Positions 356 to 23,615 of a DNA stretch of 32,090 nucleotides are shown here, in pieces. Both the position numbers and the translations under genes were made by a program. The notes beneath the pieces were generated by a model. The model saw only the letters and a program-made list of their open reading frames with translations. It did no database searches and was not told the DNA's origin. This DNA comes from Candidatus Eiseniibacteriota bacterium (GTDB taxonomy: Bacteria > Eisenbacteria > RBG-16-71-46): the NCBI GenBank assembly GCA_040081365.1, contig JBEBGT010000002.1, positions 1 to 32,090 of the forward strand. Reading direction: 5' to 3'. Position 1 is the stretch's first letter, and every line of letters starts with the position of its first letter.

Positions 356-458
356 TCCGGGGCCGGGCCGTCATGGGGCCGTGAAGCCTCGTGAGCGACT
401 GGTCGCCACAGGTCGTAGTGAGCCCGTCCGGCCCAGCGCTTTGGGGTATCCTCGCCAG

Positions 459-5772: not shown

Positions 5773-6122
5773 GGTGGGTTCCCTCGCTCACGGGGGCTCG
5801 CCTTGCGAGCGATCCCCGCGTCTCTGGTGCGGCACATCATCTTGATTCGGAACGAGTGGTTCCGACTGGGACCAGTGGCTGCGTGTGCCTGTGGACAACA
5901 TCGTTCCGTGGCACCGAACGATAGGGAGGTGGCGGCCAAGTCCAAGGGGTCCGTTGGTTGACCTCGTAATAGAACAGGCGTCGCGAACCGGTTTCACATC
6001 CACGCACCTTCGATCGAGGTGATGGTCACTTGGGCGTATTCAGTCGGGCGGGTTTGCTGCGCTACTATCGCTGGTATCGAGTCGGGCCTGATGTCACGGT
6101 CGCGATCGGAGTCGCGAATCCC

Positions 6123-9004: not shown

Positions 9005-9105
9005 CGCTCAGCGCAGCGCGGTCACCACGATGTTGTCGTAGTACACCGTGCACTGCGCGGCGCCGCCGGTGTAGGCGGGCAGCGCGATCGCGCCGGTGAG
9101 TCGCG
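8972..9105. repeat. Direct repeat copy B of the ATPase-3'/DUF1080-3' convergent junction
   Basis: See copy A. This copy contains an 11-codon relic of the ATPase C-terminus followed by the true 3' end of the intact DUF1080 gene. Confidence 0.8.
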
Positions 9106-9676
9106 CGTTCTTCACTTCGGGGCGGTCCAGCTTGAGCTCGCCGTTCACGAACACGCGGAAGCGAGTGCCGCGTGCTTCCACGCGCACGTGGTTCCACGCG
9201 CCGTTCGCGTTGGTGGCCGAGGCGCGCCCGAGCGGCCATTCGCGGTGGTACATGAGCACGTCCTGGTAGCTGCCGCCGCGCAGGTCCACGCCGATGCCGG
9301 TGTCCTCGTGCACGCGCACCACCACGCCCTTGTCAACGCCGCGCATCATGCACACGTCCACGTCCACGGCGACGTCGGTCCACGACGTGTCGCCCGCGTA
9401 GATCAGCGAGCGCAGCTGCTTCTCGTCGGGTAGATCGGCGCGCAGCATGCCGCGCACCACGCTCCACACGCCGTCGCGGTCCGGCCGCCAGCGCTCGAGC
9501 TTGCCGCTCGAGAAGTCTTCGGCGAACAGCACGCCGGTCGCCGGCTTGTTGAAGCGCGGCGGAGTGCTGGGCAGCGCACGGCGCGTCTCATCCGGTGCGG
9601 CCCCGAGCAACAGGAGCGTCGCGCCGGCGAAGAGCGCGCTGCGGACGATTCGGGCATCCATACGGCTGCGGACCAT
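9008..9676 (-). CDS. Secreted DUF1080 / LamG-like (3-keto-disaccharide-hydrolase-fold) protein
   Basis: I chose the start at ATG 9676 (MVRSRMDARIVRSALFAGATLLLLGAAPDE, signal-peptide-like); ATG 9661 is also possible. The body (WRPDRDGVWSVVRGMLRA ... WNHVRVEARGTRFRVFVNGELK ... TVYYDNIVV) resembles jelly-roll DUF1080 proteins. The family call comes from memory of the pattern, not a search. Confidence 0.7.
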   Translation of the reverse strand: MVRSRMDARIVRSALFAGATLLLLGAAPDETRRALPSTPPRFNKPATGVLFAEDFSSGKLERWRPDRDGVWSVVRGMLRADLPDEKQLRSLIYAGDTSWTDVAVDVDVCMMRGVDKGVVVRVHEDTGIGVDLRGGSYQDVLMYHREWPLGRASATNANGAWNHVRVEARGTRFRVFVNGELKLDRPEVKNARLTGAIALPAYTGGAAQCTVYYDNIVVTALR

Positions 9677-9829
9677 GGCACCCTCCGGGAACGGAGTCCA
9701 CCCGGACCCCGGTCCACCGGGAGTATCGGCGCTCGGACACCCGAGCACGAGGGGGGCGGGGCCCGCCGGGAACGCCGCTTTTCTGCCAAGCGCGGATGGT
9801 CCGCACGCCGCCACCGGCGCACCGGATGG

Positions 9830-9859: not shown

Positions 9860-12031
9860 CTACAGCCGCACGCTCACGCCCGCCTGCAACTGGCGCGTGG
9901 TGCCGGTCTGGCCCTTCTGCTGTTCCCAGCCACCGTTCACGTACCAACGGCCACCGACCGCCAGATCGAGGTCGATACCCTGCCAGCGCTCGGTCTCCTC
10001 GAACCCCGTGGCACGGTCGCGCGTGCGGCGCGTGCCCGCGTTGAACTCGAAGTGCGACTGGCCGAGCGGATCGAACCCGGCGCCGAACGACGACAGCGCA
10101 CTTTCGGTGCCCGGGCTCGTGAACGCCGAGATGCGCGTGCGCACGCTGCACTGCCAGCGCGTCAGCCGGTACACCTCACCGCTCACCGACCAGGTGTCGG
10201 AGTGATCGCCACCTGAACCGGTGCGGTACTCGGCGCTGCTGCGGATGTGCTGCTTCAACTCGAGCGTGGTGCCGCCCCAGGCGCCCTGGCGGTAGCGATC
10301 GTCGAAGTCGGTCTCGGGCGTCTCGCGGTCGCGCCACAACCGCACGCTGCGGCGATTGTCGTAGCCCGACTGCAGCGCGAGCTGGGGCGTGATCGGCACG
10401 CGCATGGTCGCGAACGTGCTGGTCCACGCCAGCATGGGCTCGCCCATGTCGCGCTTCCAGCCCGTGTTGAGGTCGAGCTCCTGCGCCACCGACGCGCTCG
10501 CGCCCTTCGCGAACCACCAGCCCTGCGCGAATGCGAAGTCGCGGTTCACCGCGGCACCCCGGCGCGAGGTCACGCCGCCCACCGACACCGACCAGCGCTG
10601 TGCGGCGAGCGGCTTCTGGTGCCACTCCGCGAATGCGCCGCCTTCCACCAGATCACCCGACCAACCGAAGCGCAGCGGCTCGGGCTGCGTCCCCGCGAAC
10701 GCTCCATAGGTGTGGCGCTGATCGCCCACTTCGAGCAGGGCGCCGTCGAACAGGCTGATCGACGCCAGCGTGGGTGACGACTGCCGGCCGAGCGTGAAGC
10801 GCCGCCGGTCGTTCTTGTCGCGGAACGTGGTGGAGGCGCGATACACGCGCGAGAACTGGTCGACCACGGTGCCGGCATCGCCCGTGCGCACGGTGCGGCG
10901 CGCGCGCACGTCGATCGAGGCGTCCATGTGGCCGCCCATGCCGTCGCGTGCATCGGCACGCAGGTCGAGCGCGGGCTGCTGGTAGCGGCTGCCGGTGGAC
11001 TCCACGCTCAGCCAGCGGCCACCGAGACGGCCGCGCAGGCGCGAGCTGCGACGCGCGGCGCGACCCTTGGGCGGCGTGAGTACGGCGGCCACGCGGATCG
11101 AGTCGCCGCGCGCACTGGCCGTGCGCAGGCTATCCTCGGTGGCGGCCTGCCGGCGAAAGTCGCTGCGATAGCGCGCCACATCGCCCAGCGCGATGGCGGC
11201 GCGCGTCCACAGCGTGTCGCACGACGCACGCTTCGACGACACGAACGTCACCCGCAACCGTGCGATCGTCTGCCCGTCGCGCAGTACCTCGACCGTGTCA
11301 CCCGCGGTGAGGCCGTCCATCTGGCCGGCGTCGACGTAGGCGCTGGCACCCGCCAGGTAGCTGATGCGCGATGTGCGCAGCGTCGCGCCACCACTCGTCG
11401 CGTTCGCGCGCGGAGCGGCACTGGCCGCGGCCGGTGATGATGCCGGCTTCGAGGTGGCCGGCGCGGGCTCCGGGTTCGTGCGCACGACTGGCGCCGCCGG
11501 CCTGGCCGCCACCGGCAACGGCGCGGGGGCGACCGCCGTGGGCACGCTCGGCGTGCGGGCCGGGCGGGTCGCGGCGGCCGAGGTTTCGCTCGGCACCGCG
11601 CCGGGGGCCTTCGTCTGCACGACGGCCGCAGGGGTACGCACCGGCGGCGTCACCGTGGCTGGAACGGGCGCCGGAGTCGTCGCGATCGGCTTCGCGGCGA
11701 CCGGAACGGTGGGTGCGGGAGAGGCGGGCGCCGCCGGCGGCACCGGCTTCACGCCCGCCGTCGATGCGTTCGTCGCGGAGCTGTCCGCCACCACCGCGGG
11801 TACGGGGCCGGCGGTCTTCGGCTTCACGTTCGTGCTCGACCACACGACATTGGCGGGTGCAGCGGGCTTGGCCTTGGTGCTGTCCGGCTTCGCGGCCGGC
11901 TTCTTGAACTGCGCGCTCGACCACACCACGGTCGCGGCCGGGGCGGTGCCGAACGACACGGTGAGCAATGCCGCCGTGATCAGGGCGGTGAGGGCTGGTG
12001 CGAGTGCGGGTCGGTCCATGGCGCGCCTCAT
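9860..12031 (-). CDS. Putative outer-membrane beta-barrel protein with a long N-terminal Pro/Ala-rich linker
   Basis: ATG 12031 overlaps the upstream cytochrome stop (ATGA, 12028-12031). Signal peptide: MRRAMDRPALAPALTALITAALLTVSFGTAPAA. A Pro/Ala/Thr/Val-rich region of ~185 aa lies at nt 11356-11914. It is followed by a small beta-rich domain and then ~440 aa of alternating hydrophobic/polar strand-like segments rich in G, R, W and Y (e.g. RWSVSVGGVTS, FAFAQGWWFAK, RWYVNGGWEQQ). The protein ends GVSVRL, not a classical C-terminal Phe. The longer track ORF (to 12946) is a frame-shadow of the cytochrome gene. Confidence 0.72.
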   Translation of the reverse strand: MRRAMDRPALAPALTALITAALLTVSFGTAPAATVVWSSAQFKKPAAKPDSTKAKPAAPANVVWSSTNVKPKTAGPVPAVVADSSATNASTAGVKPVPPAAPASPAPTVPVAAKPIATTPAPVPATVTPPVRTPAAVVQTKAPGAVPSETSAAATRPARTPSVPTAVAPAPLPVAARPAAPVVRTNPEPAPATSKPASSPAAASAAPRANATSGGATLRTSRISYLAGASAYVDAGQMDGLTAGDTVEVLRDGQTIARLRVTFVSSKRASCDTLWTRAAIALGDVARYRSDFRRQAATEDSLRTASARGDSIRVAAVLTPPKGRAARRSSRLRGRLGGRWLSVESTGSRYQQPALDLRADARDGMGGHMDASIDVRARRTVRTGDAGTVVDQFSRVYRASTTFRDKNDRRRFTLGRQSSPTLASISLFDGALLEVGDQRHTYGAFAGTQPEPLRFGWSGDLVEGGAFAEWHQKPLAAQRWSVSVGGVTSRRGAAVNRDFAFAQGWWFAKGASASVAQELDLNTGWKRDMGEPMLAWTSTFATMRVPITPQLALQSGYDNRRSVRLWRDRETPETDFDDRYRQGAWGGTTLELKQHIRSSAEYRTGSGGDHSDTWSVSGEVYRLTRWQCSVRTRISAFTSPGTESALSSFGAGFDPLGQSHFEFNAGTRRTRDRATGFEETERWQGIDLDLAVGGRWYVNGGWEQQKGQTGTTRQLQAGVSVRL

Positions 12032-13971
12032 CGGGTATGACACGAATAACAGGCCGTGCTCGTGTAGCTGTAGCCGCTGCGGCCCCGGTGGTGTCCGTCG
12101 GTCACGGCCTTGTCCGAATGCGGGTGACAGCTGAGGCAGTTGAATGTCGCGAAGTTCGTGGGCGAGCTGTGGCAGTCGGTGCACGAGTTCCACCGCCCGG
12201 CGTGACCGCGCGAGTAGATGCGGAAGTACTGCGTGTCGTGATTGAACGTCGCGCCGCTCCATCGGGTGGTGTTGTGGCAGCTTGCACACGCGGTCGCCGT
12301 GAATCCCGCAGCCGGGTGGTTCGGTACCGCGGTGCTGTAGTCGGTCATGTGGCACGACTGGCAGGTGGTGGGCTTGCCCTTGTAGATGCCATCGGCGTGA
12401 CAGCTCTGGCAGGTGGTGGCGATGTGCGCGCCGGTGAGCGGGAACAGCGTCGTGCTGTGGTTGAACGCGCCCCCGACCCAGGTGGTGGTGCCGTGGCAGC
12501 TCGCACACGACGCACTCGGGAATGCCGCGGGGGTGTGCGTGGGTACCGCCGTGGAGTAGTCCGTCGCGTGGCACGCGAAGCACGCCATGGGTTTGCCCTT
12601 GTAAACGCCGTCCCCGTGGCAGTCGGTGCACAGCGTGGTGCGATGCGCGCCGGTGAGCGCGAACGCGGTGGTGTTGTGATCGAACACCGCGCCCGCCCAA
12701 GTGGTGGTGTTGTGGCAGCTCGCGCATGCGCTGCTCGGGAACCCGGTGGGGCTGTGGGTCGGGATCGCGCCGGTATAGTCGGCCTGGTGGCAGCTGATGC
12801 ACGTGCCGGACTTGCCATTGTAGACGCCGTCGGAATGACAGCTCTGGCAGGTCGTCGTGCGGTGTGCGCCCGTGAGCGGGAAACTCGTGGCGTTGTGGTC
12901 GAACGTGGCACCCACGAAGGACGTCGTGTTGTGGCAGCTCGTGCACGATGCGGCCGCGAAGCCCGATGCCAGATGGGGCGGCTGCGCGCGGTCATAGTCG
13001 ACCTGGTGGCAGGCGATGCATGCCGTCGGCTTGCCGTTGAACACGCCGTCGGAGTGACAGCTCTGGCACGTCGTGCTGCGGTGCGCACCGGTGAGCGGGA
13101 ATGACGTCGTACTGTGGTCGAACGCCGACCCGGCCCAGCCCGTGGTGTTGTGACACGTCGCGCAGGCGCTGGCCGCGAAGCCCGACGCGGCGTGCGGGGG
13201 CTGGGCGCGGTTGTAGTCCAACTGGTGGCACGACGCGCAGTCCTTGGGCGTGCCCCGGTAGCGGCCGCCGGTGTGGCAGCTCTCGCACGATGTGGTGACG
13301 TGCGTGCCGGTGAGCGGGAAGCCCGAGCGCTGGTGGTCGAACTTGGCGTTCTCCCACGTGCCCGCCGCGTGGCAGGCCTGGCAATCGGTGGGGAAGCCGC
13401 CGCCGGCGTGGTCGGGATTCTTCGCGTTCCGATACTCGTCCATGTGACACGAGCGGCATTCGGCTTGTGTGTTCACGAACTGCAGCTGGCCCTGCGAGCT
13501 GGGCTTGTGGCAGCCCTCGCAGTCGAGCGCGGCGTGCCCGCCCGTGAGCGGGAAGCGCGTGAGCTGATGGGCGCGCACCATGGGGCCGCGGTCCACGAAG
13601 CTGCGCGCCGAATGGCAGCGCGAGCAGTCGGTGCCCATCTCACCACGGTGCGGATCCTGATGGCACGAGGCGCACTGCGTCTGCGACGCCGCGAAGTCGA
13701 GCGACGTGTGGCAGCCCAGGCACGACGCGGCGGCGTGCGCGCCGTCCAGGCGGAAGCCGAACTTGCCGTGGTCGAACTTGCTGCTGATCTTCGCCGGCTT
13801 CCAGCCATCGGAGCCGTGGCAGAGTTCACACGCCTCGCGGTACTTGCCGTGCGGGTTCTCGACGCGCGGGCGCGCTGCAGCCCACGCGCTACCCAGCGCG
13901 ATCAGCGGCAGCACGACCAGGGCGATGGCGAGCAGCCATCGGGTCGGGCGCGGGTCAAGGTCGGGCAGCAT
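12028..13971 (-). CDS. Multihaem c-type cytochrome, 25 CxxCH motifs in 647 aa
   Basis: I counted 25 CxxCH motifs in the translation. The N-terminal signal/anchor is RWLLAIALVVLPLIALGSAWAAA. c7/c3-like context motifs recur (F[DN]H...FPLTGAH...CxxCH). A GGAGG Shine-Dalgarno sequence lies 7 nt upstream of ATG 13971, inside the end of the upstream gene. Confidence 0.95.
   Translation of the reverse strand: MLPDLDPRPTRWLLAIALVVLPLIALGSAWAAARPRVENPHGKYREACELCHGSDGWKPAKISSKFDHGKFGFRLDGAHAAASCLGCHTSLDFAASQTQCASCHQDPHRGEMGTDCSRCHSARSFVDRGPMVRAHQLTRFPLTGGHAALDCEGCHKPSSQGQLQFVNTQAECRSCHMDEYRNAKNPDHAGGGFPTDCQACHAAGTWENAKFDHQRSGFPLTGTHVTTSCESCHTGGRYRGTPKDCASCHQLDYNRAQPPHAASGFAASACATCHNTTGWAGSAFDHSTTSFPLTGAHRSTTCQSCHSDGVFNGKPTACIACHQVDYDRAQPPHLASGFAAASCTSCHNTTSFVGATFDHNATSFPLTGAHRTTTCQSCHSDGVYNGKSGTCISCHQADYTGAIPTHSPTGFPSSACASCHNTTTWAGAVFDHNTTAFALTGAHRTTLCTDCHGDGVYKGKPMACFACHATDYSTAVPTHTPAAFPSASCASCHGTTTWVGGAFNHSTTLFPLTGAHIATTCQSCHADGIYKGKPTTCQSCHMTDYSTAVPNHPAAGFTATACASCHNTTRWSGATFNHDTQYFRIYSRGHAGRWNSCTDCHSSPTNFATFNCLSCHPHSDKAVTDGHHRGRSGYSYTSTACYSCHTR
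12289..13383 (-). repeat. Five exact-period (73 aa / 219 nt) tandem trihaem modules inside the 25-haem cytochrome, plus a partial sixth
   Basis: The first Cys of each module falls at residues 197, 270, 343, 416, 489 and 562, a constant 73-residue spacing. Module consensus: CxxCHNTTxWxGAxFDHxxTxFPLTGAHxxTxCQSCHxDGVYxGKPxxCxxCHxxDYxxAxPxHxxxGFxxxx. Confidence 0.9.
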
Positions 13972-13974
13972 GGG

Positions 13975-15882
13975 TCACCTCCCGGGGCGGGACTGCGCGC
14001 GCGAACGCGGCTTGCGATCGCGCGGAGGACTGGTGGTGCCGCGCGGGGCCGAGGCATCCGGCGCCGCGGGCGCATGGCACTGCTCACAACGGGTCGCGGT
14101 GGGCCGGTACACGATGGCCATGGTGCCGTCGCTCATGCGGCCGTTGCGATGGCACGCGGCGCACGGCGTGCGCGAGTGCGCACCCTGCAGCCGGAACGCC
14201 GAGTCGCGATCGTGGTCGAACTTGCGCGCCCCGATGAACGTGTTGAAGTCATGGCACGATTCACACGCGCCCTTGTCCTTGCGCACCGCGAACTGGCCGT
14301 GGTGCGTGTCGTCGTGGCAGTCCTTGCAGATGCGTGCCTTGCTGTCGAACTTGAGCGCGCGTAGTTCGGTGCTGCCCTTGAGCGTCGAACCGCCCGGCGC
14401 CTTATCGAGCTCGGCGTGGCACTTCTGGCATGGCACGGCCATGTGTGCGCCCTCGAGCGGGAACACGCAATCCGCGTGCGCGCGGCCGTCGTAGGTGGAC
14501 GGCTGGAATGCCGCCATGGAGTGGCAGGCGAGGCACGCCGCCTGATGCGGACGCAGCCCGCCCGGCGAGAACCGCCCCGCGTGGGGATCGCTGTGGCAGT
14601 CGATGCACGCCGCGCGCGCCGGCCGCATGCGCACGCGCGCCGGGCCGAGTAGCGCGGCTTCGCCGCTGCGCTCCGCCGCACGCGTGTGACACTTGCCGCA
14701 GGCCGTGTTGGCGTGCGCGCCGTCGAGCGGGTACTTGGTGCGCTGATGCTCGGGCACCGGCCAGGTCGAGGGTGAGAACGCCTTCACGTCGTGACAGGTG
14801 GCGCAGTCCGTGGGCTTGCCTGCCACCGTGGCCGTGCCCTGGTGCGCGTCCTTGTGGCAGTCCATGCAGCGCGCGAACTTGGGACGTTGACCGCCGAAGC
14901 GGGCTTCGTGGCAGCCCTCGCACTTCACGTTCGCGTGCGCGCCGCGCAATGGGTACTTGGTCTGCTCGTGGTCGAAGCCCGAGCGGTTGACCGCCTTCCA
15001 GTCGCTGGTCACGTGGCACTTGGCGCACGCACCCTTGAACCGGCCGGCATGCGGGTCCTTGTGGCACGAGATGCAATCGTTGTGCGCCACGGGCTTCCAG
15101 CGTGGCTTCCAGGCGCCCTTGGCGTCGCGACCGCTGTTCACCCCGGCCGTGGCATGGCAGGCCGCGCAGGCGGGCTTCTGGTGCGCACCCGTGAGTGGGT
15201 ATTTCGTGAGCGCGTGGTCGAAGCCGGGCGCGGGACTCCAGCGGATCTGCGAGTGGCACGAGGCGCAATCCTTGCCGAGCGCATTGTCATGCACGTCGCG
15301 ATGACAGGAGACGCACGTGGTCTCGAGGCCCAACCACGAGCGGGTGCGGTCCTTCACGCGCAGCAACGGTGCAGCTGGCGAGCGGTGCAGCGCGGGCTTG
15401 TGACAATCGCGACAGGCGAGCGAGCCATGTTTGCCCTCGAGCACGAAGCCGGCCTGCGCGTGATCGAACTTCTCCGGCGCGCCGCCTTCCCAGGCCACGA
15501 GCGCGAACGCCCGGCCACCATGGTCGGGATGGCACGACGCGCAGGCGAGCGTGGTCTTGCGTGCGTGAAAGCCGCGCTGGTTGGATCTCATCCAACCCAC
15601 CTCGGTGTGGCAATCCAGGCAGCGCTGGTCCATGCCGGCCTTGCCGCTGCCGTTCGGGTGGCAGTTGAAGCACGCCGTGGTGCCATCGAGTGAGGCATGG
15701 GGCGCGGACAGCGGGCCGGGCGAGACCTGGGCGTGCGCTCCCGCGGGCAGTCCCAGCAGCAGGCCCAGCGCGCACGCCGGTCCTGCGCCGCGCGCCCGCC
15801 ACGGGCCGCGGCCGTGCCGTGGTCGGCCCGGGGGCCTGGTCCTGGATGACGTGCCGTCGTGCGGGTCATGAGCCGCGCTCAT
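13975..15882 (-). CDS. Multihaem c-type cytochrome, 20 CxxCH motifs in 635 aa
   Basis: I counted 20 CxxCH motifs. The signal-peptide-like N-terminus is ...GPACALGLLLGLPAGAHAQ. ATG 15882 overlaps the upstream stop (ATGA, 15879-15882). The stop at 13975 lies 3 nt before the next gene's ATG. Confidence 0.93.
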   Translation of the reverse strand: MSAAHDPHDGTSSRTRPPGRPRHGRGPWRARGAGPACALGLLLGLPAGAHAQVSPGPLSAPHASLDGTTACFNCHPNGSGKAGMDQRCLDCHTEVGWMRSNQRGFHARKTTLACASCHPDHGGRAFALVAWEGGAPEKFDHAQAGFVLEGKHGSLACRDCHKPALHRSPAAPLLRVKDRTRSWLGLETTCVSCHRDVHDNALGKDCASCHSQIRWSPAPGFDHALTKYPLTGAHQKPACAACHATAGVNSGRDAKGAWKPRWKPVAHNDCISCHKDPHAGRFKGACAKCHVTSDWKAVNRSGFDHEQTKYPLRGAHANVKCEGCHEARFGGQRPKFARCMDCHKDAHQGTATVAGKPTDCATCHDVKAFSPSTWPVPEHQRTKYPLDGAHANTACGKCHTRAAERSGEAALLGPARVRMRPARAACIDCHSDPHAGRFSPGGLRPHQAACLACHSMAAFQPSTYDGRAHADCVFPLEGAHMAVPCQKCHAELDKAPGGSTLKGSTELRALKFDSKARICKDCHDDTHHGQFAVRKDKGACESCHDFNTFIGARKFDHDRDSAFRLQGAHSRTPCAACHRNGRMSDGTMAIVYRPTATRCEQCHAPAAPDASAPRGTTSPPRDRKPRSRAQSRPGR

Positions 15883-17312
15883 CCGGCCATCCGGTCGCTG
15901 CCGGAGTCGTCAGCGGCCAGCGCCTTCTTCACGATGCGCACACCGCAGCGCTCGACGAACGGGTAGGGGGCTTCGCCACCGATGCGCACGATGACATCGT
16001 CGGCCGGCACCACGACGTCGCCCGCTGCCGTGGTGAGCACGGCATCGTGCGCGCGGATCTCGCGCACCTGGCTGCCGAGCAGCAGCCGCACGTGCCCCGA
16101 CTTCACCGCCGCGTCGATCTTCGCGCGATTGCGGTCCTTCACGCGCCCGAACTCGGCGCCGCGGTACGACAGCGTGACGCGCGTGCCGTCCTGGTTGGCC
16201 AGGCCGACCGCGGACTCCACGGCGCTGTCACCCCCGCCCACCACCAGCACGGCGCGACCGGCGAACGCCTCCATCTCGACGATGTCGTAGAACACGTGCC
16301 CCTGGGCCTCGCCCGTCACGCCCAGCCGGCGCGGCGTACCACGGCGGCCCAGCGCCAGGACCACGCGCCGTGCCCGGAACCCGTGTTCGGCGGTGCGCAC
16401 CACGAAGTGCGCGCCTTCGCGCGTCACCGACTCCACGCGCGAGCCGGTGCGCACTTGCAGCCCTGTGCGCGTGATGATCGTCTGCCACACCTGCACGAGC
16501 GATTCCTTGGAGGCGTCCGACACCCAGAGGTCGCCGTACACCGGCACGCGCAGTGGTTCGGCGAACAGTACCTTGTGGCGCGGGTAGCGCGCGATGGTGT
16601 CCGCGAGCGTGCCCTGCTCCAGCACCGTGTAGCGCAGCTGGCTTGCCAGGGCTTCGAGTCCGGCTGACAGCCCGGCGGGGCCCGAGCCGACCACGACCAC
16701 GTCGAGGACGCCGGCTTCGGCCGGCGTGCGTTCCGCGCGCAACGAGGCCGCCACATGTTCCATGGCGAGCTTGCCTTCGTTGATGGCGTTCTTGATGAGC
16801 CCGCGGCCGCCGAGCTCGCCCACCACGTAGAGCCCGGGCACGTCGCGCGATTCGAAGTGCTCGTTCAGGTTGGGCACTTCCACGGTCTGCACGGCCTCGC
16901 CCGCCGTGACGAAGATCGCGCCCACGGGGCAGGCTGCCACGCAGTCGCCGTGGCCCTTGCACGCGGCCAGGTTCACCAGCGCGATCTTGTTCACGATGCT
17001 CAGTGCGCCGGGTTCGGGGCACGCGTCCACGCACGTGCCGCAACCCGCGCACTGATCGGCACGCACGATGGCATGCAGTGCGCCGCCGTCCTGGCCGGCC
17101 GCCACCGGTGTGGCGAGCGGGGCGCTGACGACCGCGAACGCCTGGAGCGGCGCCCGGCACGACGGGCAATGCGTGCTGCCGCTGGCGACCTGCGCGCGAC
17201 ACCGCGGGCAGGCCGTGCTCGCCGCCACCACACTGCCGCGTTGGCGGATGTGCTGGACGACGAACAGGGCGGTCAGGACGACGACGCCGAGCGTGGTGGG
17301 CCATTGCTGCAT
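15879..17312 (-). CDS. Membrane-anchored Zn-ribbon / 2x FeS (ferredoxin-type) / FAD-NAD(P)-binding oxidoreductase
   Basis: ATG 17312 (MQQWPTTLGVVVLTALFVVQHI, one TM helix) lies 1 nt after the upstream stop. The Zn-ribbon is CPRCx10CPSC. The ferredoxin motifs are CAGCGTCVDACP and CKGHGDCVAACP. The dinucleotide folds are DVVVVGSGPAGLSAG and AVLVVGGGDSAVESA. The track ORF start at 17540 overlaps the upstream gene and was rejected. Confidence 0.88.
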   Translation of the reverse strand: MQQWPTTLGVVVLTALFVVQHIRQRGSVVAASTACPRCRAQVASGSTHCPSCRAPLQAFAVVSAPLATPVAAGQDGGALHAIVRADQCAGCGTCVDACPEPGALSIVNKIALVNLAACKGHGDCVAACPVGAIFVTAGEAVQTVEVPNLNEHFESRDVPGLYVVGELGGRGLIKNAINEGKLAMEHVAASLRAERTPAEAGVLDVVVVGSGPAGLSAGLEALASQLRYTVLEQGTLADTIARYPRHKVLFAEPLRVPVYGDLWVSDASKESLVQVWQTIITRTGLQVRTGSRVESVTREGAHFVVRTAEHGFRARRVVLALGRRGTPRRLGVTGEAQGHVFYDIVEMEAFAGRAVLVVGGGDSAVESAVGLANQDGTRVTLSYRGAEFGRVKDRNRAKIDAAVKSGHVRLLLGSQVREIRAHDAVLTTAAGDVVVPADDVIVRIGGEAPYPFVERCGVRIVKKALAADDSGSDRMAG

Positions 17313-17313
17313 G

Positions 17314-18426
17314 TCACGGCCCCCCGAACACGTCGAGCCGAACGCCCCCCACCCACACCGCCACCGCCACGTGGATGATGACGGCGAACAGTGCGGTGAG
17401 CGCGAACGGCCGGTGCGCCACATGCCACCACGCGAACACCCGGCGCGTGGCCTCGAGCGCGCGCAACTGCTGGGCCAGCGCCATCTCGGTGCGGGCCAGC
17501 TTGAGCGCGTTGTCGAGCTCGTCGCCATGCAACGCTTCATGCCCCGCGCTGCCGTGTGCCCACTGCTTGGACAACCGGCGCAGCGTGCGCCAGCGCGTCC
17601 AGTCGTCCGAGGCCAGACGCAGGAACGTCTTCACGAGCCCGAGCCCCTCGTACGGGCGCGGGTCGAGCGCCAGGTCACGCTCGAGTTCCTGCGGCGTGAA
17701 TCCGGTGGCGACCGCGAGGTTCGTGAGCAGCGCGCGGCGCTGGCTGCCCGCCTCCTCGAGCGACAGCTCGAGCCCCGAACGGCTGCGCGGGATGTGCGTG
17801 TACAGGTAGCGCCCGACGATGCCCGACAGCGACACGATCACCATGGCGAGCATGCCCATGCCGATCAGCCCGTCGAAGTGCCAGCCCGCGTGCACCGCCG
17901 CGATCCCCGGCAGCGCCAGGCCCATGACGATATGCACGTTCATCCAGCCACCCAGCGCGCCGGTCCACGACAGCCACTTGGCCATCTTGCGCAGCGGGTA
18001 GAGCCACATGAACACGAACAGCGCCAGGGCGAGCACGCCGAACGCCAACCCCACCGGGCCGGACGACTTGAGCAGTCCGTGCAGCGGGTGACGCAGCCGC
18101 ATGGCCTCCGGCGCGAGGTAGTAGGGCAGCCCCCACGCGGTGACCAGCGCGGTGAGCCCCACGAGCACGAACAGCGGTAGGCCCGTTGCCGGATCGCGCT
18201 GCGATTCGGCCGCGGGCGCCGGGCTCACGACTCGCAGGGCAGGCGCGGCCTGCCCGCCGTCCGCGGCGGAGTGCTCCGCGTGGCCGGATCGGGGCGGCAG
18301 TGCGCCGTGCGAAATGAGTGGGGTCGAGGACAGTTTCGTGGCCTTCCGCAAGGGTTGTCGGGCGGGGTGGCAAGGAACCACAACGACTTGGGCCTCAAAG
18401 GGCCCGAGCCGCCGGCGAGAGGGCAA
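17314..18426 (-). CDS. Integral membrane protein (about 5 TM) with two Hx13H pairs; candidate dihaem b-type electron-transfer subunit
   Basis: Predicted TM helices lie at about aa 82-104, 123-145, 160-181, 186-207 and 333-358. The His pairs are H165/H179 in TM3 and H338/H352 in TM5, each with 13 intervening residues. The start is uncertain: 18426 is a TTG and only the longest option, and the first ~80 aa are not membrane-like. The stop is at 17314. Confidence 0.7.
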   Translation of the reverse strand: MPSRRRLGPFEAQVVVVPCHPARQPLRKATKLSSTPLISHGALPPRSGHAEHSAADGGQAAPALRVVSPAPAAESQRDPATGLPLFVLVGLTALVTAWGLPYYLAPEAMRLRHPLHGLLKSSGPVGLAFGVLALALFVFMWLYPLRKMAKWLSWTGALGGWMNVHIVMGLALPGIAAVHAGWHFDGLIGMGMLAMVIVSLSGIVGRYLYTHIPRSRSGLELSLEEAGSQRRALLTNLAVATGFTPQELERDLALDPRPYEGLGLVKTFLRLASDDWTRWRTLRRLSKQWAHGSAGHEALHGDELDNALKLARTEMALAQQLRALEATRRVFAWWHVAHRPFALTALFAVIIHVAVAVWVGGVRLDVFGGP

Positions 18427-18762
18427 AAGTGGTGCCGGGAAACCATCATCCGTGCATAATCAACTAGTACCGCTTCAAATGAGTCATAGTTCCCACAAAT
18501 GGCGTAAGATTATGTGTTCCATCACGTTTACGACCATGCCGGGTCAGCTCCGGTTTCCGGTGCGGCCAAGATCGTCGGTTGTTTTCGGCAACTCATGTAA
18601 GACGTTGGGACCACGTCGAGCGGTCGCCGGATTCCGGTCCCAATGCCTCCCACCCACGATCTTCGCCGCACAACCTAAGTGCTTGCAGCGGGCCCGTTCC
18701 GGGCCTTTCGGAGCGCCCCTCCCCGGTTGGAGGCCGCCCCGCCGCGTGCTAGCTTGGGTTCC
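18427..18762. promoter_or_regulatory. Divergent intergenic region with a locally AT-richer core (about 18440-18560); presumed promoters for the electron-transfer cluster and arginase
   Basis: This is the only stretch in the window that is visibly not GC-rich (e.g. catcatccgtgcataatcaactagtaccgcttcaaatgagtcatagttcccacaaatggcgtaagattatgtgttcc). It lies between divergent gene starts. I could not confidently identify a specific -35/-10 or operator. Confidence 0.3.
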
Positions 18763-19683
18763 ATGGCCAAGAAACGTCGCAACATCGGCATCATCGGAGT
18801 GCCCATCGACCTCGGCGCGGGTCGTCGTGGTGTCGACATGGGCCCGTCCGCGATCCGTATCGCCGACCTCGAGAAGCGCCTGGAAGAACTCGGGCACAAG
18901 GTCGAGGACTATGGCGATCTCGACGTGATGATCCCCGAGACGCAGAAGGTCGGCACCGGCAAGATGCGCTACAAGAAGCCCATCCTGTCGGCGTGCAAGG
19001 ACCTCATGAAGGCCGTCGACAAGTGCCTCACCGAGGGCCGCATGCCCTTGGTGCTGGGCGGTGATCACAGCATCGCGATCGGGTCCGTGGCCGGCTCCAC
19101 CAACTACTACGCGCGTCAGGGCGAGTCGCTGGGCTTGATCTGGTTCGATGCCCACGGCGACGCCAACACGCCCGAGACCACGCCGAGCGGCAACATCCAC
19201 GGCATGTCGTTGGCGGTGTCGCTCGGTTTCGGCGACCCCGACCTGGTGGGCATGGGCGGTCGCTCACCCAAGGTGCAGCCGCGCAACACGGTGCTCATCG
19301 GCATCCGCGATCTCGACAACGGCGAGCGCGACTTCCTCAAGAAGAGCGGCGTGACGTGCTACACCATGCGCGACCTCGATGAACGCGGCATGCGCGACGT
19401 GCTCGACGAGGCGATCCGCGCCGCCAGCGACGGCACGGCGGGCATCCACCTGTCGTTCGATCTCGACGTGGTGGACCCCGAGGACGCGCCCGGCACCGGT
19501 ACGCCGGTGTGGGGCGGCATCAGCTACCGCGAGGCGCACCTGGCCATGGAGATGTTCAACGACCGCGCGAACATCGTGGCGCTGGACCTGGTCGAGGTGA
19601 ACCCGGTGCTCGATTCGCAGAACATGACCGGGATCCTCGCCGCCGAACTCGCACAGAGCGCGCTGGGCAAGACGATCCTGTAG
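18763..19683 (+). CDS. rocF: Arginase (ureohydrolase family)
   Basis: The N-terminus IGIIGVPIDLGAGRRGVDMGPSAIR closely resembles bacterial arginases. The Mn-binding motifs GGDHSIAIGS, DAHGDANT and SFDLDVVDP are present. I chose the start at ATG 18763 (MAKKRRNIG...). Confidence 0.92.
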   Translation: MAKKRRNIGIIGVPIDLGAGRRGVDMGPSAIRIADLEKRLEELGHKVEDYGDLDVMIPETQKVGTGKMRYKKPILSACKDLMKAVDKCLTEGRMPLVLGGDHSIAIGSVAGSTNYYARQGESLGLIWFDAHGDANTPETTPSGNIHGMSLAVSLGFGDPDLVGMGGRSPKVQPRNTVLIGIRDLDNGERDFLKKSGVTCYTMRDLDERGMRDVLDEAIRAASDGTAGIHLSFDLDVVDPEDAPGTGTPVWGGISYREAHLAMEMFNDRANIVALDLVEVNPVLDSQNMTGILAAELAQSALGKTIL

Positions 19684-19699: not shown

Positions 19700-21766
19700 T
19701 CAGCTCGGCAGTACCACAAAGCGCGCGACGCGCACGCCGTAGGGCGTCACGAGCCGGGCGAAGTACATACCGGCTTCGGCGCTGGCCGGTACCGACATCT
19801 CGTGCCGTGCGGGGCTCGAGGCGCCCACGTGGTCGCGCGCCAACACGCGACCGGCCAGATCCATCAGCTCGAGCGTCGCGCCCGCGCTCCCGTCGGGGAG
19901 CTCGAATGCCAGGCGCCCGCCGCGGTTCACACGCGTGCCCAGCGTGCGGAACACTCGTGCACGCGGGGCATCCTGCCCCGCCACCGTGGGCAGGATGTGC
20001 ACGGGCCGGACCTCGCGAACGAAGTTCCCCGTCGTGTCGTACACGCGCATGATGATGATGAAGTCGGTGCCGGACCCACGAGACCAGATCTCGGGGCCGG
20101 CCCCGAGTGGCGTTTCGCCTTCCGCCGTGAGCTGTCCCCACTCCACCAGATAGGGCCCGACTCCGCCGAGCACATCCGCCTGGAACCGGCCCTGTTGCGC
20201 GGGGCCCAGTTCCCCGGGACCACGGATGGCGACCGACATCGCGGTACCGGTGACCACGGTCTTCGTCGCCGTCACGGTCTGCCCCACGGCATCGGTGTAG
20301 GTCATCTCGACGATCATCGTGCCGCCGCGGCTCTGGGCACCGATCGTGGCGGCGTTGTCCCGCCCGCGGATGATGACGCCGTTCTGGACCCGCCAATGGA
20401 GCTGGGCCGGCAGGATGCCGGTGCCGCCCGTGAGCAGATAGCCGAAGTCGCCGATGGTGCCGGCGGGCAAGGCCGTCGGGCCCAGGATGACGATGCCCGG
20501 CAGGCGCAGGCCAGGCTGGTCGCCGGCATAGACGTTGATGAGTGGGGAACTCACGACGTCGGTGTGTCCCAGTCGGTCGGTGATGCTCGCCTCCAGCACG
20601 CCGGTGCTCGCGAGTATGCAGGTCACGGTGTCGGTCGTGCTCTCGAGCGGCACCAGGCCGCCGCTCGCGGGCCGGAACGCCCACGAGAACGTGAACGGCC
20701 CGGGGCCGCAGCGGTGGCGGAGCTCGTAGCGCACGGGGTCGGTGGACCATGCCCAGGCTGGGCCGAGTACCGCGAGATTCGAGACCGGACCGGAGCCGAG
20801 GCCGCGGCTCCGGAACACGTCCTCGATGATGCCGAGATGCGCGCCCCCGTAGCGTTCAGCGTCCGCCCAGCGGACCGCGTCGGCGTAGCACGTCATGCAG
20901 CGCAGCGGATGGGTCTCGACCGCGGCGAACGCGAGTTCATCCGCGAGCTCCCCGATCTGCGCGCGCAGATCGAGCAGCGCACCGTTGATGATGCGTCCTT
21001 TGGAATACGGATCCGCCGGCAGCAAGTCCCAGCGCAGGTAGTTGTATTCCGCGGCCGTCGATTGGATGTCGTGATAACCCGCGGGCGGTGCCGAGTACTC
21101 GCCGATCCGGGTGTCGCCTTGCACGACCGCGGCGAAATAGTCCGCGATACCCTCGGCCACGGGCTGGGCTTCGCCCCGGTCGAGCGGGTAGGCCTCGGTC
21201 GGCATGCGCGGGTTGAACACGGCGTGTGTGAGCTCGTGCACGATGATGTCGGCGTCCTTCGTGTCCGCGAACCGGCCGCCGAGTCCGGTGCCGATCGTCG
21301 ACGCGGGCTCGATCACGCCCGAGAACGACCCGATGCCGACCTGGATGTTCACGCGGATGGGCAACTCCGCGAGCTCGAGTCCGTAGCGCTGCAGGCGTCC
21401 GAGGAATCGCTGCGCGTGATACATGACGTTCACCTGGTCGAACCGGAGGTCGTCCACCCCGAACGGCAGGTAGTCGAAGTCCCCGTTCGTGGTGGGCACT
21501 GCCCGGGGGGCCGCGGTCACCGACAATCCCGGGGCGAGCAGCAAGTCCCCGGGCGGGGACAGGAAGAGTGTGCACGGGAGTGCGGGTGAGAACGCATTCG
21601 GGCTCGCGGCGCGGCCGAGCACGGGAATGGTCGGCCCGGGGAAGACCGGAGCGAACGCGAATGCCGGCCGGATCGATGTCACGCTGCCAGCGAGAACCCA
21701 GAGCACTGCGGAGAACGCGCGAAGTCGACGAGCAGGACCCACGAACAAGGGAAACCTCGGAACCAT
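19700..21766 (-). CDS. Secreted thermolysin-like (gluzincin, M4/M36-like) zinc metalloprotease with a FlgD-Ig-like C-terminal domain
   Basis: The HELTHAV (HExxH) motif is followed by the AEGIADYFAAV third-ligand Glu motif, analogous to thermolysin HELTHAV...EAISDIFG. The signal peptide starts at ATG 21766 (MVPRFPLFVGPARRLRAFSAVLWVLAGSVTS). The C-terminal ~85 aa (nt 19700-19957) read LAFELPDGSAGATLELMDLAGRVLA...GMYFARLV. Confidence 0.85.
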   Translation of the reverse strand: MVPRFPLFVGPARRLRAFSAVLWVLAGSVTSIRPAFAFAPVFPGPTIPVLGRAASPNAFSPALPCTLFLSPPGDLLLAPGLSVTAAPRAVPTTNGDFDYLPFGVDDLRFDQVNVMYHAQRFLGRLQRYGLELAELPIRVNIQVGIGSFSGVIEPASTIGTGLGGRFADTKDADIIVHELTHAVFNPRMPTEAYPLDRGEAQPVAEGIADYFAAVVQGDTRIGEYSAPPAGYHDIQSTAAEYNYLRWDLLPADPYSKGRIINGALLDLRAQIGELADELAFAAVETHPLRCMTCYADAVRWADAERYGGAHLGIIEDVFRSRGLGSGPVSNLAVLGPAWAWSTDPVRYELRHRCGPGPFTFSWAFRPASGGLVPLESTTDTVTCILASTGVLEASITDRLGHTDVVSSPLINVYAGDQPGLRLPGIVILGPTALPAGTIGDFGYLLTGGTGILPAQLHWRVQNGVIIRGRDNAATIGAQSRGGTMIVEMTYTDAVGQTVTATKTVVTGTAMSVAIRGPGELGPAQQGRFQADVLGGVGPYLVEWGQLTAEGETPLGAGPEIWSRGSGTDFIIIMRVYDTTGNFVREVRPVHILPTVAGQDAPRARVFRTLGTRVNRGGRLAFELPDGSAGATLELMDLAGRVLARDHVGASSPARHEMSVPASAEAGMYFARLVTPYGVRVARFVVLPS

Positions 21767-21917
21767 CGGTCGAACGCCCGGTCCGGGGGAAGTCGTCGCA
21801 AGCGAGCCTAGTGCGGGCCCGGACCTCGGACAAGACCTGATTTCATACCCACGGGCCCGGTCGCAACTCCCCGACACCGCAACTCGTTGCGGCCGAAATG
21901 GACCGGGTGGGCCGCTC

Positions 21918-23615
21918 TCAGGCGCGCGTGCGGGTGACGAGGGCCGCGAGCGCGCGGCGGAGCCTCGGGTGCGCGTCGAACTGGCGCGCGAATGCGTCCT
22001 CGCGCCGGCCGCCCTTGGCGCGGATCACGCCCGCGAGCGCCTGGCGGTCCGCCTTGCTCCAGCGTGCGAGGCCGGGCAACAGGACCACGAGCGGCGCCCA
22101 ACGCTGCCACGCCGTGCGCTCCTCGGCGCTCCATCCGGCCAGCGTCACCCCGAGCCGGGCACGCGCCTCGCGTTCGCAGACCGCTCCGGCACGGGCTCGA
22201 TCGCCGGCGAAGCGCTCGGTGATCATGTGCGTCACCGCGATGCCGGCCGAGGGCAGCGCGAGTTCGCCGATCACGTCGTCGCGCTCCGTGCCGGTCATGC
22301 TCCAGTACAGGTTCGTGCGCGCCAGGCGGCGCAGGGTGGCGGGGCCGGTGCGATAGCCCGGCGTGCGCTGCATGCGCGCGAGCTCGCGCTGCATGAGCGC
22401 ACGGGTCGCGCGCGCGCGTGGCCGGAAGCCGAGCTTCTGGTAGAACCACCACGCGCCGGACTCGATGGCCTCTTCGTTGTGGTCGCCCAGCTGGTAGGGG
22501 TAGATCGTGAACGTGTCCGTGCCGAACAGCGCGCGCGTCATGCCCACGACCTTGCCGTACACCGGGCCGGCCTCGGCGCCGCGGAACGTGTCGAACACGT
22601 TGAACGCGATCTCGGCCGAACCATACAACGCGCTCGTGAGCACATAGCCCACCGGCACGCCGTTCTTGAGCGTGAGGAAGCCGTACACGCTCTCAAGCAG
22701 CAGCCGGCGCTCGGGCCGTGCGCCGATCATGAGGAAGCTCAAGCCATCGCCGCAGTCGACGTGGCGCACATCGCGCGCATCGCCCCACGCGAACACATCG
22801 AGGTCGCGCGTGCGCGTGACCATGGCCTCCATGGTCAGCGTCAGGGCGCGCTCGCCGTCGCGCACCGAGAGCGGCGTGATGCGCCGCGGTGGTGTGGCCG
22901 CAGCCTGCACCAGGTCGGGCCGGCCGCCGAACGCACCGCGCTGGAAGTGCATGACTCGCACCGGCCAGCGCGAGAGCGTGCGCGACGGCGTGGGATCGCC
23001 GCGGCGCGCGGCACCGTCGCCGCGCAGCCGGTAGGGCAGGCCCAGCCCGTCGTGCACGCGTTCGAACACGGCGTCGTCCGGCAGCCGCGCCGAGAGCTGC
23101 CGCGCCACGAACGCGCCGTCGGCTTCGCCGGCGGCCTTGAGCCGGGCCAGCCAGTCACGCAGGCCGTAGTCGTATTCGTCGAGGCCGGGAACCTCGGCGT
23201 CATGCGCCAGTTGCGGCAGCCAGTCCTCGAGCGCCGCCGTGTCGTCGAACGCGGTCCAGTCCAGCTCCAGGCGCTCCGGCCAACGCGCCGCCAGCCGGCG
23301 CGCGGTGGGCGCGAAGAACGCGAACCGGATGTCGGCACCCGCGATGCCCGTGTCGGCGAGACGTACGTGCCGCGAACGCACGTCGGCGCGCTGCGCGAAC
23401 GTGGCCAGTGCCCGCTCGGCCACCGCGAGCGTGGCGCGGTCGTCGGGGTACGCGCGCGCGGCGAGCAGGCATTCGTGCAGGCGCTCGATCAGCGCCACCG
23501 AACCGAGTCGCGCGCGCAGCACGCGCCGGAACGCAGCGCGCCGCTCGCGCGCCGCGGCGGCGCCGAACGTCCAGCGCAGCGCCTCCAGCCGCGCCAGCTC
23601 GCGCGCGGTGTTCAC
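21918..23615 (-). CDS. Hypothetical protein (565 aa) with a GNAT-like segment
   Basis: Long ORF with ordinary amino-acid composition. Its GTG start at 23615 overlaps the upstream stop (GTGA). The segment GVPVGYVLTSALYGSAEIAFNVFDTFRG...EEAIESGAWWFYQKLGFRP resembles the acetyl-CoA-binding end of GNAT folds. I do not firmly recognise a family. Confidence 0.65.
   Translation of the reverse strand: MNTARELARLEALRWTFGAAAARERRAAFRRVLRARLGSVALIERLHECLLAARAYPDDRATLAVAERALATFAQRADVRSRHVRLADTGIAGADIRFAFFAPTARRLAARWPERLELDWTAFDDTAALEDWLPQLAHDAEVPGLDEYDYGLRDWLARLKAAGEADGAFVARQLSARLPDDAVFERVHDGLGLPYRLRGDGAARRGDPTPSRTLSRWPVRVMHFQRGAFGGRPDLVQAAATPPRRITPLSVRDGERALTLTMEAMVTRTRDLDVFAWGDARDVRHVDCGDGLSFLMIGARPERRLLLESVYGFLTLKNGVPVGYVLTSALYGSAEIAFNVFDTFRGAEAGPVYGKVVGMTRALFGTDTFTIYPYQLGDHNEEAIESGAWWFYQKLGFRPRARATRALMQRELARMQRTPGYRTGPATLRRLARTNLYWSMTGTERDDVIGELALPSAGIAVTHMITERFAGDRARAGAVCEREARARLGVTLAGWSAEERTAWQRWAPLVVLLPGLARWSKADRQALAGVIRAKGGRREDAFARQFDAHPRLRRALAALVTRTRA

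Follow-up and report, generated by a model that had tools for sequence, protein, structure and literature searches.

Extracellular electron transfer in Gram-negative bacteria starts, to our knowledge, at quinol oxidases (CymA, ImcH, CbcL). A 32,090-nucleotide stretch of a Candidatus Eiseniibacteriota genome (contig JBEBGT010000002.1, positions 1 to 32,090; hereafter the window, meaning the whole stretch that was analyzed) raises the question of whether electrons could enter such a route by another door. On its minus strand, a gene for a predicted membrane protein, here called the b-cytochrome, is followed by genes for an iron-sulfur (FeS) flavoprotein, two multihaem cytochromes c (MHC1 and MHC2) and an outer-membrane β-barrel. 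A first-pass annotation, made from the sequence itself, had described the first gene as a ferric reductase/NOX-like dihaem b protein heading a cytochrome operon and, together with the next gene, as a split NOX-type module that would bypass the quinone pool. Our analysis favors, at a probability of roughly 0.55, a cluster that serves as an NAD(P)H-to-haem b-to-multihaem cytochrome conduit for electron export.

Identification of the b-cytochrome gene and its invariant histidines

Because the window is about 70% G+C, long spurious open reading frames (ORFs) overlap on both strands. A plus-strand reading of 17314-18426 was rejected since it gives no sensible protein. On the minus strand the ORF 17314..18426 was borne out, and when numbered from TTG 18426 its two histidine motifs read exactly as the first-pass annotation had quoted them, NVH165-IVMGLALPGIAAV-H179 and H338-RPFALTALFAVII-H352. 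The actual start probably lies downstream of TTG 18426. The NCBI call (P0394, 304 residues) starts at GTG 18228, and in this numbering, used below, the four histidines are H99 (codon 17932-17934, minus strand), H113 (17890-17892), H272 (17413-17415) and H286 (17371-17373). TTG 18351 (345 residues) may be the true start instead, because a 76%-identical homologue (P0005) has an N-terminus, MSTAPLISHP, similar to the translated text SSTPLISHG upstream of GTG 18228, and two members of the b-cytochrome's protein cluster are 342 residues long.

17314..18228 including the stop codon, minus strand: b-cytochrome gene, 304 residues, five transmembrane (TM) segments, putative dihaem protein (ORF, translation, entry P0394)
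up to TTG 18426, minus strand: full ORF of the b-cytochrome gene, with the alternative start TTG 18351 (345 residues)
17881..17955, minus strand: TM3, residues 92-116, with H99 and H113 separated by 13 residues (x13), both in 74/74 homologues
17437..17796, minus strand: TM4-TM5 loop, about 120 residues, helical and arginine-rich (AlphaFold2, hydropathy)
17347..17436, minus strand: TM5, residues 265-294, W-H269-x2-H272-x-P-F...H286, with H272 and H286 spaced x13, both in 74/74 homologues

The histidine pattern of a single sequence is by itself not compelling, because two or more H-x13-H pairs also arose in 1124 of 20,000 shuffles (5.6%) of the b-cytochrome sequence, which has 12 histidines. The real evidence is conservation. 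All four histidines recur in each of the 74 aligned homologues, down to 24% identity (range 24-60%), and they make up four of the 10 invariant columns of that alignment; the 20 homologues at 55% identity or more likewise keep all four. H269 is partly conserved (70/74), H47 (38/74) and H50 (50/74) are intermediate, and most of the remaining histidines are found in only 1-7 of the 74.

Topology and predicted structure of the b-cytochrome

The AlphaFold2 model, built with 80 homologues in the alignment, has a mean predicted local distance difference test (pLDDT) score of 88. Its helices span residues 13-32, 58-75, 92-113, 120-144 and 236-293, the last of these being hydrophobic over about its final 30 residues, and the soluble loop holds further helices at 157-175, 179-186 and 198-225 ahead of the one that begins at 236. 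Hydropathy of the 74 aligned homologues gives five TM segments and a hydrophilic loop averaging 116 residues. Both approaches locate the histidine pairs in TM3 and TM5, where the first-pass annotation had placed them. They also agree with its claim that these helices run parallel, because a single helix, TM4, lies between them along with the soluble loop of about 120 residues. This loop (residues 145-264) has a mean hydropathy of -0.35, averages 20 lysines plus arginines (K+R) and carries lysine/arginine-rich flanks. Throughout the family the protein ends about 10 residues beyond TM5.

Sidedness was assigned from K+R counts across the family by the positive-inside rule.

N-terminal flank: K+R 2.65, predicted cytoplasm
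TM1-TM2 loop: K+R 2.8, net charge +1, predicted periplasm
TM2-TM3 loop: K+R 5.0, net charge +4.95, predicted cytoplasm
TM3-TM4 loop: K+R 1.0, predicted periplasm
two ends of the long TM4-TM5 loop: K+R 2.2 and 3.3, predicted cytoplasm
C-terminus: K+R 0.4, predicted periplasm

The rule predicts a cytoplasmic location for the N-terminus and the long loop and a periplasmic one for the C-terminus. In such a topology H99 and H272 would lie about 6-7 residues inside the cytoplasmic face, with H113 and H286 close to the opposite, periplasmic face. From helix geometry, 13 intervening residues would correspond to about 21 Å along the helix, the usual spacing of two stacked haems b. The long loop is also a candidate docking surface for the flavoprotein, and the K+R distribution in both proteins puts the loop and the flavoprotein domains together in the cytoplasm, as the first-pass annotation had expected.

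The partner flavoprotein

The next gene begins 1 nt past the b-cytochrome stop (...ccg TGA c ATG cag...) and does encode, as had been proposed, an FAD/NAD(P)-binding FeS protein with its own membrane anchor.

15879..17312, minus strand: FeS flavoprotein, 477 residues, membrane-anchored (Pyr_redox_3, E 1.7e-41; Fer4_10, E 2.5e-9)
about 17238-17294, minus strand: N-terminal TM helix
17157-17210, minus strand: CPRC-x10-CPSC zinc-ribbon-like insert, residues 35-52, between TM anchor and ferredoxin domain
16914-17069, minus strand: ferredoxin domain with two FeS clusters
16665-16703, minus strand: FAD motif GxGxxG, reading GSGPAG
16209-16256, minus strand: NAD(P)H motif GGGDSA

Across 56 aligned homologues from related loci, the TM anchor and the FAD (GxGxxG), NAD(P)H (GGGDSAVE) and FeS motifs are conserved. 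The zinc-ribbon-like insert is confined to the window and to L005, a relative from Eisenbacteria, other phyla being without it. In the 43 homologues with a full first FeS motif, the anchor helix has a mean hydropathy of 2.33 and K+R averages 0.26 before the helix and 6.1 after it, and because of this difference the catalytic part is predicted to be cytoplasmic in an N-out/C-in arrangement; only one of these 43 has a twin-arginine-like match before the helix.

Models of 4Fe-4S dicluster domains match the flavoprotein. Its second FeS motif (residues 118-129) reads C-x2-H-x2-C-x3-C-P (CKGHGDCVAACP), with histidine replacing the usual second cysteine, and the pattern C.GHG.C..aCP, the histidine included, shows conservation of 90% or more across the 56 homologues. 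This sequence suggests that the second cluster is either a His-ligated [4Fe-4S] or a three-iron [3Fe-4S] cluster, and it is a plausible exit point toward the haem. The second cysteine of the first FeS motif is missing in many distant homologues.

The best NCBIfam match of the flavoprotein is YpdA (TIGR04018), at 155.4 bits and far short of the cut-off of 339.9; compared with YpdA it has an additional N-terminal TM helix and an FeS domain. Its GSGPAG motif has no cysteine at the position that we take to be essential in YpdA. A conserved redox cysteine pair was not found among the flavoprotein homologues, C456 being the only cysteine outside the FeS and zinc motifs. The proposal of a split NOX module is not supported here: the dehydrogenase is of the TrxR/YpdA type, with two Rossmann domains plus FeS clusters, and is unrelated to the FNR-like domain of NOX. 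Nor is there an FNR-like dehydrogenase fused after TM6, as in the long forms of NOX and FRE; the partner is a separate polypeptide.

Two apparent b-cytochrome-flavoprotein fusions in the Pfam results (P0147 and P0258) were rejected as frameshift read-throughs, in which TM5 is replaced by out-of-frame text. Read-throughs of this type are a hazard of high-GC metagenome assemblies and show adjacency of the two genes only.

Conservation of the gene cluster across genomes

The remaining core genes of the cluster in the window are as follows.

13975..15882, minus strand: MHC1, multihaem cytochrome c, 20 CxxCH motifs, Sec-type signal peptide (Cytochrome_C7, E 1.6e-26)
12028..13971, minus strand: MHC2, multihaem cytochrome c with 25 CxxCH motifs in repeated c7-type units (Cytochrome_C7, E 4.7e-32)
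9860..12031, minus strand: outer-membrane protein, 723 residues, β-barrel of about 22 strands (AlphaFold2, Foldseek; no Pfam match)

In order to follow the cluster, 185,579 species genomes, one per species, were scanned using a narrower alignment (A4), which gave at least 597 loci. Gene counts refer to the 46 loci whose flanks reach at least 1.5 kb upstream and 8.9 kb downstream. In every one of them a single strand carries the b-cytochrome, MHC1, MHC2 and a flavoprotein of 38-45% identity, and in 40 the outer-membrane barrel is detectable as well. The cytochrome operon context claimed earlier is borne out in these loci, with the flavoprotein and the multihaem cytochromes as obligate neighbors, and when the gene context was looked up separately for homologues of 26%, 34% and 55% identity, the same partners appeared. 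In the most frequent arrangement (32/46), the genes run b-cytochrome, MHC1, MHC2, barrel, flavoprotein. In the window and in the syntenic L005 the flavoprotein comes second, and other lineages have it directly upstream of the b-cytochrome. A split NOX gene is therefore not the general arrangement, the flavoprotein gene lying 4-8 kb off at the operon end in 32 of the 46 loci.

Among the best 80 of the at least 597 loci, carriers belong to Calditrichota, Ignavibacteria, Zixibacteria, Acidobacteriota (Thermoanaerobaculia, Vicinamibacteria and Holophagae), Gemmatimonadota, KSB1, Krumholzibacteriia, Bacteroidota, Polyangiaceae and others. Close homologues of the window proteins are labeled Candidatus Eisenbacteria or Eiseniibacteriota. 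All carriers seen are metagenome-assembled, uncultured genomes.

The MHC1 start overlaps the flavoprotein stop by 4 nt. MHC1 orthologues occur in 82 loci at 35-52% identity, and 48 of the 57 complete ones, from many phyla, have exactly 20 CxxCH motifs. MHC1 is thus a conserved 20-haem family without a curated model, and in most lineages it adjoins the b-cytochrome downstream. MHC2 matches domain II/IV of MtrC/MtrF (E 1.1e-13) and has orthologues in 79 loci; in some lineages (loci L013, L023, L027, L033-L036, L043, L049 and L078) the second cytochrome is enormous, with 46-73 CxxCH motifs in a single ORF. Both cytochromes of the window open with a hydrophobic segment that looks like a signal peptide. 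The outer-membrane protein is laid out as a signal peptide, a linker of about 200 residues, a small β domain and a barrel of about 22 strands. AlphaFold2 modeling of its C-terminal 509 residues gave 22 long strands at pLDDT 86, and Foldseek matched the barrel to the PapC usher pore (E 2.8e-9) and many porins, with 278 matches at E ≤ 1e-3. The linker (within 11390-12031, minus strand), a low-complexity stretch of about 200 residues rich in proline, alanine, threonine and valine, is absent from most homologues, which measure 520-580 residues.

Downstream of the cluster in one locus (L003, 18084-18876), a multihaem cytochrome is fused to Ni_hydr_CYTB in a CbcL-like manner; because of that fusion, this organism also has a conventional candidate quinol-oxidizing entry module.

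Family affiliation of the b-cytochrome

The b-cytochrome has at least 914 close relatives and 2702 at the 50%-cluster level, all of them named "hypothetical protein" or "uncharacterized protein". A Pfam scan of the 74 relatives matched DUF4405 in 39 (at E ≤ 0.1), Ferric_reduct in 23, Ni_hydr_CYTB in 18 and PepSY_TM in three, and any other family in at most two. We take these four to be one Pfam clan of two-haem cytochromes. The DUF4405 (PF14358) cut-off of 26.7 bits is reached by P0186 and P0284 (27.2 and 27.3 bits), and some database relatives carry a precomputed PF14358; the window b-cytochrome has no match to this model. Ferric_reduct (PF01794) likewise has no match at E ≤ 0.1 in the window protein and stays below threshold in its 23 relatives, the best of which (P0347, 25.5 bits) falls short of the cut-off of 28. 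In the relatives, TM2-TM3 corresponds to positions 1-58 of Ferric_reduct and 11-62 of DUF4405, and TM5 to positions 41-63 of DUF4405 and 132-164 of Ni_hydr_CYTB.

Compared with the ferric reductase domain (FRD), the x13 pair on TM3 is present and invariant (H99/H113, 74/74). The TM5 pair, H272/H286, is also invariant but spaced x13 rather than x12, and AlphaFold2 DSSP and hydropathy both count five TM helices, not six. Four central histidines, as described for DUF4405, are present and invariant, in a five-TM protein. The earlier assignment to an FRD/NOX fold is partly supported, by the TM3 spacing, the invariant histidines and the weak matches to haem b families, and not borne out by the profile comparison, the helix number and the TM5 spacing. 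From these sequence comparisons we conclude that the b-cytochrome represents a new family, placed remotely within the dihaem b cytochromes; it is FRD-like and cytochrome-b-like in ligand geometry, comes closest to DUF4405, and is a demonstrable member of none of these families.

Proposed electron path

In the mechanism that we propose, the five-helix b-type cytochrome would form a two-haem wire of about 20 Å across the inner membrane. H99 and H272 would ligate one haem b near the cytoplasmic face, and H113 and H286 a second haem b near the periplasmic face. The flavoprotein, tethered by its single N-out/C-in helix, would hold its FAD, its NAD(P)H site and its two FeS clusters in the cytoplasm and probably docks on the cytoplasmic TM4-TM5 loop. 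Electrons would pass from NAD(P)H, the presumed donor, to FAD, through the two FeS clusters to the inner haem b and on to the outer haem b. They would continue to the 20-haem MHC1 in the periplasm and to the 25-haem MHC2, and in a last step MHC2 would deliver them, through or along the outer-membrane barrel of about 22 strands, to an extracellular acceptor. Outward flow is favored because electrons entering from outside would have to climb uphill to NAD(P)+ and oppose the membrane potential. Since outward flow would move charge without proton pumping and build no proton-motive force, the system likely acts as a redox vent, or as an acceptor route for the re-oxidation of NAD(P)H, instead of a coupling site.

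More tentatively, and at a little short of even odds, the whole cluster would be a complete quinone-independent wire across the envelope, in which the b family and the flavoprotein together make an inner-membrane NAD(P)H:cytochrome c oxidoreductase that supplies the 20- and 25-haem cytochromes and the barrel directly. If so, members of the FCB group (Fibrobacterota-Chlorobiota-Bacteroidota), Acidobacteriota, Gemmatimonadota and Eisenbacteria could use it to dump cytoplasmic reducing power, and the carriers could be fermentative or organotrophic organisms that pass electrons to minerals or humics and leave a respiratory chain unused. As a speculation, the flavoprotein anchor might even stand in for the missing sixth helix, giving a NOX-like architecture from two non-NOX parts; this is conceivable because the b-cytochrome is predicted to end, and the flavoprotein to begin, in the periplasm.

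Evidence against an export conduit and alternative explanations

A number of results weigh against the reading of the cluster as an export conduit. Pfam and NCBIfam scans of the window b-cytochrome gave no significant match, and the sole weak Pfam match, to Ni_hydr_CYTB (PF01292; E 0.04, 14.1 bits against a cut-off of 30.1), covers TM5 only (model positions 127-169). Its five helices differ from the six of FRD and DUF4405 proteins. Profile searches of PDB sequences with two alignments (A2, A3) returned nothing relevant, and a loop-deleted TM-core profile (A5) returned nothing relevant either, matching only its own glycine-serine (GS) linker. Foldseek of the full AlphaFold2 model against PDB found no similar solved structure, whether FRD or other (best E 0.45); the top matches are unrelated helical F-BAR domains, sensor domains and terpene synthases, and the loop helices probably dominate this comparison. 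The hhalign comparison of the family profile with a single E. coli MsrQ sequence, which pairs the TM5 histidines with the MsrQ histidine pair by way of a one-residue gap, is insignificant (E 0.12), as is that with a single E. coli YodB sequence (E 0.21). The flavoprotein and b-cytochrome genes are 4-8 kb apart in most lineages, and adjacency is not the rule. A purely respiratory role is doubtful, as NAD(P)H-driven export would conserve no energy. MsrQ, the closest bacterial analogue, was also recently reported to carry ubiquinone (PMC12525009), which bears on a possible quinone site here.

The quinone question leads to an alternative that we regard as rather unlikely. The b-cytochrome could be a quinol dehydrogenase like CymA, ImcH or CbcL, passing electrons from menaquinol to the periplasmic multihaem cytochromes, with the flavoprotein either an alternative or regulatory input or in the service of another cytoplasmic reaction. 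It is established knowledge that the characterized Gram-negative routes of extracellular electron transfer all begin at a quinol oxidase, and in 32/46 loci the two genes are not adjacent. Cytochrome b561, FdnI and, according to PMC12525009, MsrQ are moreover proteins of the dihaem b group that interact with quinones. However, the flavoprotein is present in 46/46 loci on the same strand, always with an anchor of its own whose orientation would set it next to the cytoplasmic loop; the b-cytochrome showed no identifiable quinone-site motif; and it is not evident why a quinol oxidase would need a conserved cytoplasmic helical domain of 120 residues.

The direction and destination of the electrons allow for a further explanation in two variants, which together we consider quite improbable. 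In one, extracellular or periplasmic donors would feed electrons inward through the cytochromes, the haems b and the flavoprotein to a cytoplasmic acceptor, much as the porin-cytochrome conduits MtoAB and PioAB are established to run inward in iron oxidizers; such flow to NAD(P)+ would be strongly uphill and against the membrane potential on thermodynamic reasoning. In the other, the electrons that reach the periplasmic cytochromes would serve detoxification or repair, not extracellular respiration, and MsrQ, which supplies a periplasmic repair enzyme, would be the model, but 20 plus 25 haems and a 22-strand barrel far exceed the needs of a repair system. Both variants could appeal to the YpdA/TrxR-like nature of the flavoprotein, a class that often reduces small cytoplasmic substrates, yet its homologues have no conserved redox-active cysteine pair. 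Finally, the four histidines might bind another metal or be structural, in a transporter, a sensor or a cytochrome assembly factor. The window protein, with no significant family or structure match and with a histidine pattern that chance produces in 5.6% of shuffles of its sequence, leaves some room for this; absolute conservation of two intramembrane x13 pairs on parallel helices, repeated independent matches to three haem b families and to essentially nothing else, and obligate linkage to redox proteins make it very hard to believe.

Other features of the window

9008..9814, minus strand: DUF1080 protein (3-keto-disaccharide hydrolase-like; Pfam E 1.2e-11), operon end
18229..18678: intergenic region that separates the operon from the divergent arginase gene, with an AT-richer stretch at about 18450-18530; presumed promoter site
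198-2858, plus strand: P-type ATPase
2992-5772, minus strand: 926-residue protein with an FlgD-Ig-like C-terminus
6030-8945, plus strand: Kelch β-propeller protein
18679-19683, plus strand: divergent arginase
19700-21877, minus strand: M36-like metallopeptidase
21918-23615, minus strand: protein of 565 residues
23848-25824, minus strand: ORF resembling an S9-type peptidase by eye; L005 has a Peptidase_S9 gene

In the window, successive operon genes abut or overlap by 1-4 nt. The intergenic region gave no match to a sigma-70 consensus or to Rfam, and promoter, terminator and Rfam scans of the operon were uninformative. The DUF1080 gene is found only in the window and in the syntenic L005, an accessory of the Eisenbacteria clade outside the conserved core. 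The arginase gene, divergent there as well, and the ATPase gene recur as neighbors in L005.

Significance and comparison with known systems

The literature covered DUF4405, FRD evolution, Caldithrix, Melioribacter, bioanode genomes and peat multihaem cytochromes. In these full texts neither the membrane family nor its association with the flavoprotein nor the cluster of five genes was found described, which, given incomplete coverage, is absence of evidence only; no physiological data on the carriers were found in the literature searched. Transmembrane dihaem wires, NAD(P)H-fed export (NOX, FRE, MsrQ/Fre) and porin-cytochrome conduits are already known, and what is new is the family and the combination. 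The cluster offers a putative entry point other than a quinol oxidase, in the form of a dihaem b protein with an NAD(P)H flavoprotein, in phyla with high abundance in soils, sediments and bioreactors, for which there is no genetic model of metal reduction. If the proposed function is true, the cluster would be a marker, currently missed, for gene surveys of iron and humic reduction, would define a new haem b family and would provide synthetic biology with a compact NAD(P)H-to-electrode module.

DUF4405 is the best-matching curated family of the relatives and shares the four central membrane histidines. A 2024 study reported that a purified DUF4405 protein binds haem b, modeled its four central histidines as arranged in MsrQ and PepSY-like proteins, and proposed that these six-TM proteins, found in ApbE flavinylation clusters, carry electrons across the cytoplasmic membrane (PMC11334425). 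In contrast, the b-cytochrome family has five TM segments, a 120-residue cytoplasmic insert, and FeS flavoprotein and multihaem cytochrome partners.

The canonical FRD ligands are H101/H115 on TM3 and H209/H222 on TM5 of NOX2 (PMC3591440). Like the FRD superfamily (NOX, FRE, bacterial SpNOX/csNOX5, STEAP, MsrQ/YedZ), the b-cytochrome has an x13 pair on TM3 and a second pair on TM5, on parallel helices; its TM4-TM5 loop is predicted to be cytoplasmic, as is NOX loop D, and electrons are proposed to leave a cytoplasmic NAD(P)H flavoprotein outward. It differs in having five helices, 13 instead of 12 residues between the TM5 histidines and a large insert at the equivalent of loop D. The dehydrogenase is a separate, non-FNR protein with two FeS clusters interposed between flavin and haem, and the putative acceptor is a multihaem cytochrome, as opposed to O2, an Fe3+ chelate or MsrP.

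In E. coli MsrQ/Fre, a membrane haem b protein works with a separate cytoplasmic NAD(P)H flavoprotein and a periplasmic partner, and this split two-component arrangement is a bacterial precedent for the one proposed here. Fre is soluble and not co-encoded, unlike the flavoprotein of the cluster, which is anchored and co-encoded. MsrQ has arginine in place of the first canonical haem-ligating histidine of TM3 and probably binds one haem (PMC3591440), and PMC12525009 describes it as a flavocytochrome with an FMN site.

The FRD has been suggested to derive from cytochrome b (PMC3591440). The b-cytochrome resembles cytochrome b of bc1/b6f in having H-x13-H pairs on two parallel helices. In bc1/b6f these lie on helices B and D and hold two haems b stacked across the membrane. 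Cytochrome b differs in being an eight-helix quinol/quinone enzyme with Rieske and cytochrome c1 partners, and the two show no sequence match.

In sulfate reducers, the Tmc, Hmc and Qmo complexes use membrane b-type cytochromes to join periplasmic multihaem cytochromes c to cytoplasmic FeS proteins or flavoproteins, a precedent for wiring between cytochrome c and the cytoplasm. Their b subunits are of the NarI/HdrE type with other histidine spacing and no detected homology to the b-cytochrome, their electrons flow inward to sulfate/sulfite reduction, and they have no outer-membrane barrel.

The porin-cytochrome conduits, MtrCAB with CymA and Geobacter Pcc/Ext with ImcH and CbcL, share with the present cluster the co-encoding of multihaem cytochromes and a large outer-membrane barrel, a combination found here in 40 of the 46 loci. 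Their cytochromes carry about 10 haems, compared with the 20 and 25 of MHC1 and MHC2. Their entry is a quinol-oxidizing c-type or b/c-type cytochrome, whereas the putative entry here is a new dihaem b family together with an NAD(P)H flavoprotein.

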